Origin: Podarcis melisellensis
Taxonomy: Eukaryota
Assembly (NCBI GenBank): GCA_964234715.1
Contig: OZ174277.1
DNA: 64,000 nucleotides
Reading direction: 5' to 3' (one strand)
Of this stretch, positions 17,193 to 55,127 are shown piece by piece; position 1 is the stretch's first letter, and each line of letters starts with the position of its first letter. Below the pieces are notes generated by a model. The model was not told the DNA's origin, ran no database searches, and saw only the letters and a program-made list of their open reading frames with translations. The position numbers and the translations under genes are program-made.

Positions 17193-18890
17193 CTGCAGGA
17201 AAAAAAGTTGACCTTAATACTGCGTCTTCACTGCGCTTGACCCCTTCAGCTGAAGAAGGAGGGTTTCCTGACTCACACCCCCTTAGACCCCACAACTCCA
17301 AATATGTTAGCCTCAAAACTGATCTATAGCCTGCCCCATGAATCACACAACCTGAAAAGTGATAGTCTTTGGAATAACTATACACCCAAAAAGCGCCTCA
17401 GGGTGCTCTTTGTGCCAGCCTCTTCCCTTTCTCACACGCGCTTGACAAGTGACCAAACCAATGAAGCTATTTATTCAGTTTCCACCTCTAAGTGCTCCAA
17501 CCATGTTCTTCTACAGTATGGAGTAGGCAAAAAAAAAAAAAGGGTGGGGGACTGGCAATCAATCGCAGCTGATCAAAAAATCCCTACTCACCCCCATCAC
17601 AACAATCAGCTAATCCCAATCTGTAAATGGGAAAGGCAGGCTGGGCACTAGTTCCAAGACCAGGAGGAGGGAGGGAATGGGTGGGGCAGCCTTTTACATT
17701 CCCACCCACTCCTCCTAAGCACCTGAATGTGTCTGCTGGTGCGCAATAAGAAGCCTTTTTGCCCTGGCTCCATCACAAATGTGCTCCCACCTAGACCACT
17801 TTAGGGGACAGATGGAGGAGTGGCGTTCCCTCACTGGGAAAATTCCTCTCCCCTGCCATAACTATAATAAATGGCTATAAGGGCACTGACATGAAACACA
17901 TTTAATGCAGGTTAGGCATCCTGCTTCACCAGGATTTAAAATCTGGCTTTGTAGCTGGTTAACAAACCCTGCTCAAGAGGGAACCTGGTTAGCTTCAACC
18001 ATGGTTAACAGGGGCACTCTTGCTGTGCCCTTTAGCTGTGATTTAGGCAGGATGAAGGATTTGGCCATATGAGGAAGAAGCTAAAGGGGGAAAGGGCAAT
18101 GAAATCCTAATTTTCCAGCTGGCTGGTTGAGAGAGAGCTTGTATTGCATCTGCACCAGCCCTGAGCAAGAGGTTTTAAATGCACAACCCAATAGTTATCC
18201 CCTATACTTCAAGAATGTGCTATCCTAATTTAGGACAAGGATTGTCAAACAAAAATCAAGTAGATACACTTGGAACAAGAAAAGAAATTGACCGTAAAAT
18301 CATCTAAGGCTGCCATCCCAAATACACTTATTTTAAAAGGATGTTCCATTTAGATGAGCAGGGCTTACCTACAAGTTAATATTTTTAAATTCATGTTAAT
18401 TGCTTTGCCTACTGCTATAATTGATAGTACCTCCCAAGCTTTAAAATGACTGTAAACTCCTCTGCCTTTCATCTCCTGTTGTAATAGACCCTGTCATATG
18501 AAAATGATGAAGAGTCATGGAAGGAGTCACCTTCCCCTAGCACTGAATAAGCAGCCTAACTAGAATGCAAAAAACATTTTCATCCCTGAAACTAATCCAC
18601 TTTACCCAGTGGCAAGGAAGGGCATTTTTGACCCAGTTGCCTAGCCTTCTCATCATGAGTTTTGCAAACATGATCTTGTGATCTGATGTACAGTACTAGC
18701 ATGCAGGATCTGGTGTAAGAGTCCACAAAAGTTATTTGCCTGTAATATATTTTACTAGCCTGCCTGCTAAGAGCCTGCTAGCATCCTGGATTTTCATGGA
18801 TCCCTTTCCTCCACATCCAGCATGAAAAATCCAGGTCACTGGCCTCTTAACAGGCTAGTAAAACAGAAAGAAAGCAAAAAAAAAAAATTT

Positions 18891-19364
18891 CCTTCCAGTA
18901 GCACCTTAAAGACCAACTAAGTTAGTTCTTGGTATGAGCTTTCGTGTGCATGCACACTTCTTCAGATACCCTTCCAGTAGCACCTTAAAGACCAACTAAG
19001 TTAGTTCTTGGTATGAGCTTTCGTGTGCATGCACACTTCTTCAGATACCCTTCCAGTAGCACCTTAAAGACCAACTAAGTTAGTTCTTGGTATGAGCTTT
19101 CGTGTGCATGCACACTTCTTCAGATACCCTTCCAGTAGCACCTTAAAGACCAACTAAGTTAGTTCTTGGTATGAGCTTTCGTGTGCATGCACACTTCTTC
19201 AGATACCCTTCCAGTAGCACCTTAAAGACCAACTAAGTTAGTTCTTGGTATGAGCTTTCGTGTGCATGCACACTTCTTCAGATACCCTTCCAGTAACACC
19301 TTAAAGACCAACTAAGTTAGTTCTTGGTATGAGCTTTCGTGCGCATGCACACTTCTTCAGATAC
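18891..19364. repeat. Tandem array, 6 x 79 bp
   Basis: Units start at 18891, 18970, 19049, 19128, 19207 and 19286. Units 1-5 are identical; unit 6 has two substitutions (19296 G>A, 19342 T>C). Confidence 0.97.
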
Positions 19365-19365
19365 C
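18931..19365 (-). ncRNA. Six tandem minimal type I hammerhead ribozyme motifs
   Basis: Each unit reads GGUAU-CUGAAGA-A-GUGUG CAUG CACAC-GAAA-GC-UC/AUACC. This gives the CUGANGA and GAAA cores, a 5-bp stem I, stem II, a palindromic AGCU stem III and a UH cleavage site. Confidence 0.88.
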
Positions 19366-19366
19366 T

Positions 19367-19406
19367 GGTATCTGAAGAAGTGTGCATGCGCACGAAAGCT
19401 CATACC
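19367..19406 (+). ncRNA. Seventh hammerhead motif in the inverted unit
   Basis: GGTAT CTGAAGA A GTGTG CATG CGCAC GAAA GCTC/ATACC. The variant base keeps stem II intact as a U.G wobble. Confidence 0.85.
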
Positions 19407-21588
19407 AAGAACTAACTTAGTTGGTCTTTAAGGTGCTACTGGAAGGATTTTTTTTTTGTTTTGACTATGGCAGACCAACACGGCTACCTATCTGTAACTA
19501 GAAAGAAAGCAAAAGGTGTATTCTCCCAAGTGAGCTGGCAGAGAAGGGACTGCACTGAGGGATTCACTTTCCTTCCTTGCTCAACCAAGCAACCTGGAGG
19601 AGGAAAATGGAGTACCATGTCTTGCCAGCTCATTCAGGGCTTGTGCAGAATTCCTGGTGGCCTCTGGCTAGCAGATGAGTTGTTCAATAAAAAGGCTGTC
19701 TCCCAGGCTGAGTGCAAACTTTCCTCCTTGTTCCAACAAGCGCATAAAATTCAATCCGTGCCCCACTTGACCTCAGCTTTATGACCTTGACCTTCCTTTA
19801 TGGAGGTTCTGGGCTCATCTCAAGATTCCTAGTAGGAGGGGGATTACCACGAAAGTAGGGCAGAGCAGGGTGATTCTACCTCCACTTTTGCATAGCATAA
19901 GATGATTTGTGTAGTGCCGCCTTCACCAACTGGGTGCTCTCTAGATGTTCTGGCCTACAACTCCCACTAGTCCTAGCCAAAGTCCAAAACATCAGGAGGG
20001 CACAGGCTTGTGAAGGTTGCTGTAGTGTATGAGTTTTGGACCACCTGTACATTGCTTGACGTATTTCAAAGAATCCAGCTTCCTGGAGGGAGCAGAAATA
20101 TGATGAAGTTTGCTGATCGAAGAGGTTGTTAAATTAATAACGCTGGCCATATGTGCACTACAGTCTCAAGAAAGCTCTGGGAATTGTAGTACTGTGTGGG
20201 AACCTCCTTCCTGTACTTCCCTGCACACACACTGAGCTAGAGTTGCCAAGATTCTTTGGGGGAAGTAATGATACTTAAGACATCTATAAGCTTGTAGAGA
20301 TATGCTCCAGTTCTTCTGGCTTCACACAGAGCATTTGCCATACATTCCTAGCTTTACAACTGCTACTCCTCTCCTGCTTTTTATATGTTACACTTGCAGA
20401 AAGGTATGCAGGAAGGCAGCTTGTGGTTATTATTGCAACATGTCTCAATAACTGCAAATTGTATGAACCTCCTGGTTTTCTAACAGCGGTGTGCTGTATT
20501 CAAAATTGCAACATGAGAATACTACACACAGCATCTTGTGAGGGGCTGATGACCTCTATTCCAAGCAAATGTGTTTAGGATCAAAGCGTAAAAAAGACTG
20601 GGAGTTGGTGAGAACAAGTAATCCAAATGGCATCAATTTAGAGTACTAGACAATAATCAGTGAAAGTCACACAGACAATGATAGCCTTCTCTGCTGAAGA
20701 AACTAAGAGACTTCTTAAAGCTTCTTATTGCTCTCTATGAACAATATCCTGTTTCCTTGTACAGTGGACAATGATGAATTTTGGACAAATGGGTACAACA
20801 AATGACTCCAGTTTTTACACACTCCCTGCCCAAGTACTCCTTTAAAAGCCCATTTCTAGCTGTGTCTAACTAAATGCCACTCCCTGATTGCACCAGATAT
20901 ATTTGCCATCTCTCTATAAATGGAAGCCCTACTAGTAGAGTGTGAAGAATAGAGAGTGAATGTAGGAAAACTGCCAAAGGGAATGGAATGAATGAAATTA
21001 ACACACACTCTGACAAGATGACACCCTGACAACTTAATAGCTGTATCCCAACTGTAATTAACATAGTAAAGCACACAGCATCTAAATGGAGCTATATATT
21101 TGTGGAGAGAATGAGGCTAAACCTAGTTTTAAGGGAAATCACAATTTTCCCATGTGACACTAAAAAGGACTAATAAAGGGAAATAAGTACTCCACCACAA
21201 CCTATAGTTAACTTACAGGATTCACTAAGTGGTCAGGGCCCCACAAACCTAGGAAACTATATGCAGTCTTATGTCCTACCCTGTCCTCCAAGACCAACCA
21301 GGAACTCTCTCTAAAATACACCAAGTGCCAAACTGGGCATACAAGACTCACACTAAGGCATGCCACACAACTTTGAGAACATCCTCCAAAGAAGCTCACC
21401 AAACTCTGAGCTGAAATGGTGTAAGACTGAAAGCTTTATTCACATTGGGTTTGGGTGGATAGGGATATGGATGGATAGATTACATTAATATAATTATTGA
21501 CGCTGAGTCCTTGGGATTGGCTGGGCTCTAAATCCAGCAAACAAACAAGCTAGAGTGATGCTATGGTGACCACCAGCTTAATATTTCT

Positions 21589-23390: not shown

Positions 23391-23849
23391 TGCAGTGTGT
23401 GGCTACCAGCAGATCAGCTTTAGAATTTCATATCTGGTTATGCACCGATTCTGCTCACCGACAGCAAGCACAATTCACTGTAAAGCTCCGCCTGGAAATT
23501 ACAGACAATTTCTACACAGGAGAGAATTTGTAAGAAGGTGGCTTGGGAGATTTCCTGCCCGTTAACACACAAGAGACACAGATACACAACCCCGTATCTC
23601 TTCCCCTGGTTGTCAAAGACGCCGCATTAAAATTATGTGCAGATCGCGCACAATCTCTCCCTAGAGGGCCCCCTATTTGCATTGCGAGACAGGGGTGTCC
23701 ATTCTGCGAGGCTATCCAGGCTGGACTGTGCCTGTTCTCTGCGTTGCAGCCGCTATAGGCGCTTCAGAGCCTGCCCTGCCAGTGGCTCCTGTGTCACCTT
23801 AACACCCCTCTCCCCCCACAATTGGCAAAACCCTCCCGTTATATCTCCG

Positions 23850-24910
23850 ACTCCGCTCTTCACTGACATCACACACAAAGCAGGAGCCATCCTACAGCGC
23901 TGGGCGGCTCCCCGCGCAATCCTCACTCCCCGTTGCCTGAGCCAAAAAGAAAAGACCAAACGCAGGGGGGGCTGCGCGTGTGTCGAAGCCGAGAGCAGCC
24001 GGCCGACGTCGCCGTGGCCTCGCGACAACCCCTTCGGCGACTCCAGCCCGGGCCGATCCAAGCCCGCATGCAACGCGCCGCTCCTGCCCTCCCCACGATT
24101 TCACGGGGCGAGGAGATACAAAATAAAACAAGAAGTAAGCAGATCGCCGCGGCTGCAGCCCCAGAGCCAGCTCGTGCTGCAAACAGCGGCTCGCAGGAGC
24201 AGCAACTTACTGGTTTCTGCCAGGCGCGAGTGTCTCTCTCTCTCCCCGGCTCCCTCGCGCGCAGCTGCTCGGCTCGTGCTGCTGTCCCTGCACGCGCCGC
24301 CTCGGAAGAGCTGCCCTTGGCTGACGGCTGAAGCAGCAGCAGCAGCAGCGCGCAGGGTGGAGGGAGGGGAGCAGCGGCGGCAGCTGGTTGGGGCGCGGAG
24401 GCGCCTCTCATCCGACTCAAGAGGCGGCCGCGGCACCTGTGACCGCCTGTCACCCATAGCACCCGCCCCTCCGTGCTGCCTCCTCCTTCTCCTCACGTCG
24501 CCCCCTGACGGGAAAATGCTGCACGACGCCAGCCAGGCGAGGACTAAAGGGAGGCAGCCAGCAGCAGCAAGCGGGCGACGGTGAGTGGCTCTTCCAGCCC
24601 CGTCAGCAGCAGCTTTGGCTCCGACAGCCTGAAGGGACCGGGAAGACTTCCCGCTCAGAGGCTTGCCTGAGCAGGTTGGGCCTCTTTTCAGGGCTCCCTC
24701 CATGCACAAAGCAGCCGCCGCTTCTGAGGGGCGACGGGAGGTCCTGCGTGTGTGTCAGGGGCTACCTGGGCAGCGGACAAGGGGCGCAGCGCGCCAATGC
24801 GTCCTTGGGCAAATGGGACGGTGTCATTGGCCACGCAACTGTGGGCTAGCGACGTCATTCGTTCCTGGAGAATGGTAAATCCATGCACTTTGGGGCAATG
24901 CGACAGCGAG
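23850..24910. promoter_or_regulatory. CpG-island promoter, probably bidirectional
   Basis: GC- and CpG-dense non-repeat sequence. CCAAT boxes at about 24794 and 24827 (reverse). CRE-like GACGTCA at about 24852 and TGACG at 24506. Outward-facing splice donors on both strands. Confidence 0.85.
24211..24480 (-). other. Putative first exon of an unidentified minus-strand gene (5' boundary approximate)
   Basis: Consensus donor CCA|GTAAGT (intron starts at 24210) inside the CpG island; contains a (CTG)n tract at about 24330-24349. Coding status is unresolved. Confidence 0.55.
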
Positions 24911-53299: not shown

Positions 53300-53476
53300 G
53301 CATCCAAGTGTTGTACCAAAGCCAATGAATAAAGTGAGGGCCAGTTCATTCAAGCCCAGCCACTTATTTTGGGGTCTATTGCTGTTGTCACACTGGAATC
53401 TGGTTCTCTAGTGGTAAACCAGTTTTCTGGGTACGCCGCTATGGGCTCACTCTGGTGATCCATTCAAGATTCACTC

Positions 53477-54074
53477 TGTGCTGGTCCCGGGGGGAGGTTA
53501 CCGTGGGGCGAGGTCCAGGACCTGAGTCGAGGGTCAGCAGACAGTCCTTCACGGGCGAAGCGGGGTTCGAAGCGAGGAGCCGGGCAAGGACAGGAACTCT
53601 GGAGGAATAGGACTGGGTGCTGGCCGAAACAGCTATTCAATGACGTTGCTCCCGCAACCTGGGACAGGGCTGACTGGCCTTTATCTTCTCTGAGGCCCGG
53701 GGCGGTCCCGGCCCCCAGGAGACCCGCCTCTCCTGGCCTTAAGGCGAGCACTCCTCCTGGGAGAAACCAGTTCCCTCCGCCTCTGTGCCCTGAGCCTCTG
53801 CAGCTCAGGAGAGGCTGGAGGGTTACTGGACCCAGGGGGAGACTCACCTCCCCCTGACAGGGCTGGGAGAGGCGCACCTGTAGGCACTGTGTCCTCAACC
53901 CCCTCCGGAGCCAGAGTGGATTCACTTGGTGCCTGTTCCTGAGGATCCGGCACAGGTGCAGGCGCTTCAGAATCAAGGCCCTGCCCCAGTTCAGCCAGCC
54001 CTGGAGGCGGGGACTCCTGTGCAGGCTGGGATTCCTCCGGTTCAGCCTCTGAATCGGATTCCCAGGCCATCACA
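53477..54074 (-). mobile_element. Young solo LTR (598 bp, probably Gypsy-type)
   Basis: TGTG...CACA termini; perfect 5-bp TSD CACTC at 53472-53476 and 54075-54079; CpG-rich, so little decay. Confidence 0.92.
53681..54070 (-). CDS. LTR-encoded 129-aa ORF (acidic, Pro-rich N-terminus; Arg-rich C-terminus with SPRRSARL)
   Basis: ATG at LTR nt 5, open to a TAA that overlaps the TATA-like GATAAA. Expression is not demonstrated. Confidence 0.5.
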   Translation of the reverse strand: MAWESDSEAEPEESQPAQESPPPGLAELGQGLDSEAPAPVPDPQEQAPSESTLAPEGVEDTVPTGAPLPALSGGGESPPGSSNPPASPELQRLRAQRRRELVSPRRSARLKARRGGSPGGRDRPGPQRR

Positions 54075-55127
54075 CACTCGTGGTGGAGGCTGGTGCCCAT
54101 TCAGACTTGTAGAACAAAAGGCAGGAAGGTCAACAGTAGGGGGAGATAGCCAATGAAAAATGGAACCAATTAATTCTGACTTTGTCCACTTCTTTATCCC
54201 TGCTGAGTTTACAAAGGCAACACTGAGACTAAAGAGGAGGAAGCTGACAGCTAGTTCCATGGACTGGACTGAGTGTAACTAAGGAGACTGGCAGGTGGGG
54301 GCTGGCTGAGGGCAGCTTGGTAGGGAAGTGCCCCACTTGTGCTAATGGATGAGACTTCATTCACAAGAAACAAACCTGACACAGGTTGCACCATGGTTCA
54401 CTGGACCTGCATAACTTGCAGCATCTGAGCTCCATGAGCATTGGGACTGATGCCAACCTCAGCTTGGATAGAAAATTTTAATATAAATTAAGCAGCAAAA
54501 GCGCCATCATCTTTACTTCTCTTTGATTTTTTTTTAAAAAGACAATGACTCAAATCCCAAATTGCTTTAGTAACTGCTCTTTCCCCTCACAAATATTATT
54601 TGTTAAATTTATATCCCACCCTCCCTCCCAAAGGAGCCCAATACTAACTGCAGCTTATTTTATTGCAAGGATCTTAATTTGTTTCCGTGTACATTATGAC
54701 ATGCACATTTTACAAACATAGTAGGTTTAAAGTCTTCCCCTACTGAATGAAATACAGTGGTTGGCATTTGCATTTGAAAATCCAGTAAATGTTTCCAGAT
54801 TGCATTCCAACTTGTCTGGTAAAGTTTGCCAGACTGAATATAGTGTATCTTTGTGTGGTGTTAATGTGTTGAGCTTCTGGATTAGAAAATGCTTTCTGAC
54901 AAATGAGTGCTTTTAGCAGAATGTTTGTGCTATGAAATGAACAAGAGACAAAACAAATCTAGAATTGGTTTTCGCAATCTGATTATTGCTAAGATTATTT
55001 CTGTTCTGACTGATGAAGAATTCTGTGTAACTCTCAGACCTGCACACAGGGTTTGTGCCATCAGTTGTACAACCTTGCTTGCTCAATATTTATGAAGAGA
55101 TAGATGAAACTGCTGTATCCTTAGTCA

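Follow-up and report, generated by a model that had tools for sequence, protein, structure and literature searches.

A U3-encoded integrase tail with a possible HMGN-like nucleosome anchor in a lizard Ty3/Gypsy chromovirus

The window analyzed here, a 64,000-nt stretch of Podarcis melisellensis DNA (contig OZ174277.1), contains an LTR whose U3 is filled by a long open reading frame ending in a motif, RRSARL, like the nucleosome-binding core of HMGN proteins. What does this frame encode, and could its product contact chromatin? An earlier note on this DNA had described the LTR as TSD-bounded, with the ATG at its fifth nucleotide, a 129-codon frame running to a TATA-like box, RRSARL near the end, and a polarized protein, and each of these points was borne out. 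The LTR is 598 bp long, and the flanking 5-bp TSD copies match perfectly; the ATG is at LTR nt 5 (54070), the TAA stop codon (53683-53681) lies inside the GATAAAG box, and RRSARL corresponds to residues 105-110. Residues 1-85 include 17 D/E and no K/R, and residues 86-129 include 15 K/R and 3 D/E. The protein is probably a low-complexity, disordered chain that passes from an acidic start through a Pro-rich linker to a basic end. A search of the 129-aa frame against Pfam gave no family at E≤10, HMGN included. The features are collected in Table 1.

Table 1. Positions of the solo LTR and of the features within and beside it, in window coordinates.
Feature	Position	Strand	Remark
Solo LTR, 598 bp, TGT...ACA, family A (Tf1/sushi-type chromovirus)	53477..54074	-	identity of 93-100% over about 598 bp among the 40 copies scored
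5-bp TSD, left copy	53472..53476	.	
5-bp TSD, right copy	54075..54079	.	
129-codon U3 frame; Gag-Pol/integrase C-terminal tail if the LTR is the 3′ LTR of a full-length element, orphan here	53681..54070	-	
28-residue conserved core, residues 83-110, NPP..SP.LQRLR.ERRR.L...RRSARL	53741..53824	-	net dN/dS 0.22 [0.06-0.64], A vs B
RRSARL, residues 105-110, HMGN/Dsup/Dot5-like; predicted contacts H2A E61/E64, H2B Q47/E105/H109 (mature numbering)	53741..53758	-	
TATA-like box GATAAAG, holds the stop codon; present in family B too	53679..53685	-	
10-nt complement of the PBS of full-length copies; inferred R 5′ end/self-priming primer	53646..53655	-	28 nt downstream of TATA box

The LTR family, called family A here, is abundant. 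In the 1.57-Gb genome, the LTR gave 2728 first-look DNA candidates, the best 40 of which were scored and have 93-100% identity, and a protein-level query gave 7318 candidates; the copies are spread over most large contigs. Thirty loci from the LTR DNA query served as the sample for TSD, frame, and motif counts. The TSD is perfect in 20 of these and has one mismatch in 4 more, i.e., the loci are mostly solo LTRs; two of the 30 are 5′ LTRs, and one is a 3′ LTR. A frame of 127-129 codons is retained in 21 of the 30 loci, and 17 carry exact RRSARL. The claim that the frame is a U3-encoded feature of the family is supported, with the qualification that it is translatable from the 3′ LTR only. On extension, the interior next to the 5′ and 3′ LTR loci was found to be Gypsy, with gag, RT, RNase H, integrase, and chromodomain. 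The full-length parent called for in the earlier note was thus identified as Gypsy chromovirus copies of family A, with TG...CA LTRs, a PPT, and a 5-bp TSD. Pfam searches of an intact full-length frame showed the order gag-PR-RT-RH-IN with a canonical PF00385 chromodomain after the integrase, and the family A Gag-Pol combines SH3_Tf2-1 with this C-terminal chromodomain. Named homologues include frog, medaka, tuatara, and anole Gypsy proteins. The parent of the solo LTR is an abundant, young Ty3/Gypsy chromovirus of the Tf1/sushi type in a lacertid lizard. A comparison of five window frames with Pfam gave no match to a host gene around the LTR.

What is the U3 frame in the full-length copies? 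A single gag-pro-RT-RH-IN-chromodomain frame crosses the PPT and extends over the first 330-390 nt of the 3′ LTR, with its stop at the TATA box or shortly before it. A chromodomain search gave 30 loci, two of which are host genes. Of the 28 element-derived loci, 19 share the frame of the U3 ATG, and 17 of these stay open through the whole tail; in 4 others the frame ends at the LTR border, and the remaining 5 use the third frame. Twenty full-length candidates, a non-random sample picked to span the frame lengths, comprise 12 fused and 8 unfused copies, and 100% identical LTR pairs are present in five fused copies and one unfused copy. Frame length was used as the class label for the match rows at 60.8 bits, which sorted 73 of 75: 41 are fused, 7 stop at the border, 4 are in the third frame, and 21 are broken upstream. 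Fused copies are, therefore, 41 of the 52 length-classifiable young rows, and out-of-frame copies 11 of 52. Direct counts of the junction gave 18 in frame of 29 young-biased loci, compared with 9 of 22 older loci, 13 of the latter being out of frame. The junction classes differ mainly by the length of a G run at or just before the PPT, for which slippage and assembly error are indistinguishable causes of the out-of-frame classes; the G run could toggle the tail on and off among progeny. UniRef already has a fused Podarcis muralis protein (P0004). Since Gag-Pol continues into the U3 frame in the majority of young full-length copies, this ORF is the C-terminal tail of the integrase and not a separate accessory gene. 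Older copies had suggested that pol ends at LTR nt 3-5, with a stop that overlaps the ATG (UGAUG). Stop-restart at this site was considered as the main route of expression and was dropped, since the young copies are mostly fused. The ATG at nt 5 belongs to the LTR end, TGTGATG, and is missing from the related tails P0010 and P0083.

The PBS of the full-length copies, which was judged non-tRNA-like by inspection, is complementary through its nt 3-12 to 53655-53646, and the site is shared with family B, a relative described below. The PBS and this 10-nt stretch pair in the MFE and centroid folds of L002, with a whole-fold z-score of -0.36 that is by itself non-significant. Self-priming is known for Tf1/sushi elements, as outlined in PMC6317226. 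From the position of the PBS complement downstream of the TATA box, we infer that transcription starts below the U3 frame. Because the frame is upstream of this putative start site, the promoter of a solo LTR should be unable to transcribe it, and the frame of the solo copy is very probably a neutral relic that is unexpressible from its own promoter. The window copy is an ordinary, probably inert solo LTR. Four RNA runs were aligned to a young copy from the PBS to the 3′ LTR, with 127-190 reads each that came mostly from relatives 90-95% alike. Sense-strand coverage of gag-pol was low in the two bulk libraries, at a depth too low to decide, and U3 was covered on both strands with varied flanks, again at low depth. 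The four runs, at this same insufficient depth, show no start or end peaks.

We then consider what the basic end of the tail might do in active elements. RRSARL is the commonest form of the motif in all five groups compared, namely family A, family B, Y1, Y2, and L102. The expectation that RRSxRL is conserved across divergent families holds among these five related groups and fails in more distant families: an RRSARL-type motif is absent from families C and D and from P0010, P0082, and P0083, and R[RK][ST]xR[LIVM] occurs in the tails of 0 of 146 chromodomain-bearing representatives, many of which are spliced gene models with unreliable tails. Absence of the motif in related LTR families, which had been named in advance as evidence against the idea, is seen at this greater distance only. 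Decayed copies carry RRSAHL or RRSACL, which matches the expectation for CpG decay. The six RRSARL codons are nearly invariant as DNA between families A and B, despite an overall dS of about 1, and the motif could owe some of its conservation to a promoter cis-element that lies about 60 nt above the TATA box. The S-P-x-R sequence beside it, previously pointed out as a CDK consensus site, is unconserved, being of the STRR type in family B and APRR in the young subfamily Y2.

Tail residues 83-122 were submitted to complex prediction with H2A and H2B of the same genome. The predicted score is 0.68, compared with 0.02 for the best of 3 controls; among 78 solved complexes, 51 attain the score mark, as do 2 of 108 mismatched pairs (39 of 65 and 2 of 126, respectively, for eukaryotes), in a calibration made up without peptides or disordered chains. 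The runs agree in at least 71% of contacts, and the partner pLDDT is at least 64. The predicted interface places residues 104-110 and 112-113 against H2A E61/E64 and H2B Q47/E105/H109. In the model, R109 is on H2A E61, S107 is near E61/E64, and R105 is near H2B Q47. These predicted contacts overlap partly with those of Dsup and HMGN2 on the acidic patch, as outlined in PMC12487698, and HMGN-like motifs outside HMGN, Dot5 RRSARIAT and Dsup RRSSRLTS, are described as binding the patch (PMC13347269, PMC12487698). HMGN2 itself is misoriented on the nucleosome by AlphaFold 3, according to the outline in PMC12487698. Our docking model may echo the solved HMGN, Dsup, and LANA complexes; since similar complexes have already been solved, it indicates likeness and not binding. 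The proposal that RRSARL is an acidic-patch docking motif is plausible in light of the predicted complex with the lizard histones.

We propose that, in active elements, the RRSARL end would contact the H2A-H2B acidic patch through an arginine anchor of the HMGN type, a claim for which we consider the case about evenly balanced. Combined with the aromatic-cage chromodomain, such an anchor would let the integrase grip nucleosomes at two points, and this grip could help or steer integration. Of the roles that the earlier note had offered for a chromatin-tethered product, the integration tether is the most likely, whereas a separate transactivator or anti-silencing protein is unsupported, as the frame is continuous with Gag-Pol in most young full-length copies. 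The proposal as a whole, that of an active vertebrate LTR retrotransposon with a bivalent integrase tether made of a methyl-lysine-type chromodomain and a U3-encoded HMGN-mimic anchor, with interchangeable U3 tails in its relatives and a slippery G run as a switch, is offered tentatively.

Is the likeness to HMGN incidental? The basic end might simply be an NLS or a generic DNA/RNA-binding tract of the integrase tail, which we regard as possible though on the unlikely side, and other lizard families bear on this question. Family C (L144-L163, e.g., L152:1621 onward; also L033:580-4253) is a second, very young Gypsy family with 2143 candidates, of which the best 40 scored are 99-100% alike. It is unrelated to family A, and its pol enters the LTR for 634 nt in 19 of 20 loci, the 20th being internally deleted. 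Its chromodomain region is degenerate-looking, and its tail has an acidic start and a basic end, ...RKRKERKRWSRARLL, without RRSARL. A third family, D (L039, minus strand; P0126), has an acidic-to-basic tail ending in ...LLCRKRFKKRPL and a junction resembling that of family C. The tail of P0082, a distant relative, ends in ...KRGRPVSLRPKR, with what we take to be an AT-hook-like GRP and an LRP-type motif where RRSARL would sit. The order Gly-rich PPT-like junction, acidic block, linker, and basic end is found in family D (L039, P0126), P0133, P0010, P0082, and P0083, tails whose position in the LTR is deduced from the junction only. Judged from these sequences, the tail layout is widespread, with unrelated basic ends, and RRSARL is local. 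This combination favors a generic basic-tail function, NLS or chromatin contact, through different motifs, and makes it the main rival to the acidic-patch anchor. The upstream LQRLR.ERRR block, which is about as conserved as RRSARL, points in the same direction, as does the C-terminal NLS of Ty1 integrase, which in published outline also serves as a targeting signal. However, the exact RR-S-A-R-L match has been held across families at dS of about 1, the predicted interface is limited to residues 104-113, on the acidic patch, and RRSxR[LIVM] arises in any frame in 0.6% of 3000 dinucleotide shuffles.

Is the tail under selection at all? It could be a functionless product of neutral read-through, with its frame and motif kept by GC-rich composition and by DNA constraint on the U3 promoter; we consider this improbable. 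An open frame alone is weak evidence in 65% GC DNA: the frame stays open in 4.6% of dinucleotide shuffles (n=3000), and at least one of the six frames is open in 29.5%. Two of the three sense frames lack stops, the second one running for 201 codons over the LTR (window 53467-54069, minus strand); this second frame was rejected as a coding frame and is probably not coding, with dN/dS above 1. The out-of-frame junctions, which are common, and the invariance of the motif codons as DNA above the TATA box are also consistent with neutral read-through. Against it are the comparisons between families. We used copies of the window's family, A (n=19), and of B (n=18), Y1 (n=18), and Y2 (n=33), taking open frames only and counting paired LTRs twice, and obtained net divergence as between-group minus within-group divergence from pairwise Nei-Gojobori counts. 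P0003, a family B protein, is 47% identical to the window's protein. Pattern searches for a full-length family B parent returned 0 and 7 matches, and all 7 lacked pol on their upstream side; fusion to Gag-Pol in family B is presumed. For A vs B, the net dS is 1.01 and dN is 0.27, a ratio of 0.27 [0.16-0.41], and the other two frames give 1.23 and 1.36, so the dN/dS check suggested in the earlier note came out in favor of a coding frame. By segment, A vs B gives 0.22 [0.06-0.64] for the 28-residue core and 0.49 [0.26-0.83] for the linker. The net ratios are 0.45 [0.23-0.86] for A vs Y1, 0.57 [0.33-1.17] for A vs Y2, and 0.46 [0.25-0.98] for Y1 vs Y2, and several segment intervals span 1. Codon-blind DNA alignments show a third-position excess for A vs B (net 0.19/0.21/0.35) and are flat within A (0.05/0.06/0.06). 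The tail lengths of the groups, 110, 116, 119, 127, 129, and 142 codons, are all frame-keeping, among copies retained for their open frames.

How strong is this constraint? Between single young copies, the dN/dS of the tail is 0.41, 0.49, and, for the closest pair with 7 changes, 0.92, and that of the integrase is 0.07, 0.06, and 0.23; the constraint on the tail is far weaker than that on the integrase. Within families, dN/dS is 0.55-1.08 in four groups and 0.23, on very few changes, in Y1, values that are uninformative because they reflect mostly post-insertion change in open copies only and carry no transition/transversion correction. The tail is a real, loosely constrained protein segment whose basic core is conserved, and purifying selection of moderate strength acts on it between families. 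At the tail level, named homologues come from Podarcis muralis only; in a search of representative proteins, P0084 and P0194 match the tail start closely and probably belong to the same family on this sequence match, and P0082 matches in part.

A separate accessory protein, with a transactivating or anti-silencing role and produced from the 3′ LTR through splicing, UGAUG stop-restart, or protease release, is highly improbable. In its favor are the overlap of stop and ATG in copies with pol ending at LTR nt 3-5, an acidic N-part that could be an activation domain, and an NCBI gene model (P0003) that starts with the family B frame. Against it, only 7 of 52 young copies belong to the stop-overlap class, which has a +1 class as its mirror image, a pattern that homopolymer slippage or assembly error would produce; the Met is missing in some related tails; and the four RNA runs, at 127-190 reads each, mostly from relatives 90-95% alike and too shallow to decide, have no splice joint into U3.

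How does this integrase tail compare with known systems? In plant CRM group A, an integrase targeting motif is encoded in the 3′ LTR, as outlined in PMC3059260, and the lizard family A likewise encodes an integrase tail there. In the CRM elements, the CR motif is described as replacing the chromodomain (PMC3059260, PMC6317226), whereas family A keeps a canonical PF00385 chromodomain and adds an unrelated LTR-encoded tail. CRM group A is also tRNA-Met primed and centromeric, whereas family A has self-complementary priming and is found on most large contigs. Family A resembles the Tf1/sushi elements of fungi and vertebrates in its SH3_Tf2-1, C-terminal chromodomain, self-priming PBS of no tRNA type, and 5-bp TSD. 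However, the proteins of many relatives, named or unnamed, stop no more than about 50 residues after the chromodomain, and that of family A continues for about 125-145 residues, mostly U3-encoded. The architecture, therefore, has precedent in CRM. What is left, in this active vertebrate chromovirus, is an integrase tail that is encoded in U3, is under selection, and ends in an HMGN-like sequence.

RRSARL is identical to the HMGN core RRSARLSA over six residues, i.e., 6 of 8 contiguous (RRSARL-KA), like the HMGN-like motifs of other proteins, and the tail context SPRRSARLK is similar to PPRRSSRLT of Dsup, with which the predicted acidic-patch contacts overlap. Unlike HMGN, a stand-alone small protein, the tail is fused to Gag-Pol and has its motif at the C-terminal end of a retrotransposon polyprotein; the SA that follows the motif in HMGN is KA, RA, or QA in the tails, the binding is a prediction, and Pfam gives 0 families at E≤10. 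In prototype foamy virus, an arginine anchor of Gag on the acidic patch is described as influencing integration sites (PMC12125541), and family A would likewise be a retroelement with such an anchor, if the prediction is correct. The foamy virus anchor is on Gag and outside U3, whereas that of family A is on the integrase and U3-encoded. The Gag motif is of the YxLR type, unlike RRSARL. HIV nef and MMTV sag have coding sequence in U3 as separate genes on spliced RNAs. The family A frame is similarly inside U3 and dependent on the 3′ LTR for translation, but it is fused to pol in 41 of the 52 classifiable young copies. Within the titles and abstract beginnings covered, with Repbase and most subscription papers outside that scope, neither an HMGN-type motif on a retrotransposon integrase nor this lizard family was found, and a prior description of the family may exist.

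If the anchor is real, the acidic-patch mimicry of foamy virus Gag and LANA would extend to retrotransposon integrases, and the targeting domain that plant centromeric elements encode in the LTR would have a counterpart in vertebrates. An exchange of LTRs would then replace the promoter and the targeting module in one step; at least two more families of this lizard have different basic ends. The choice of sites by vertebrate Ty3/Gypsy elements has been little studied, partly since mammals lost active elements; family A is young and abundant and has many intact copies.

Because each solo LTR carries an orphan ATG-started frame, the family also accounts for spurious small 'genes' and gene-model fusions that number in the thousands in annotations of lacertid genomes. 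In the gene models P0003, P0005-P0007, and P0194, the U3 frame of a solo LTR or a 5′ LTR comes first, and other exons or gag follow; these models are probably annotation artefacts, with exonisation as the alternative. Elsewhere in the window, a GC-rich, CpG-island-like region at about 23600-24800 has long open frames with no Pfam match, and a 79-bp unit is repeated in tandem at 18812-19443, in near-identical copies with an inverted copy at the right end. At L031:5592-10000, a Copia-type element with frames interrupted by stops adjoins a deleted family A element. Contig C19, which is 2.5% of the genome, holds 25 of the 40 best matches to the internal 3′ region, compared with 2 of 40 for the LTR query, and many LTR copies with equal scores lie at 21-33 Mb; this pattern suggests that C19 is a non-recombining (W-like) chromosome on which segments have been amplified.
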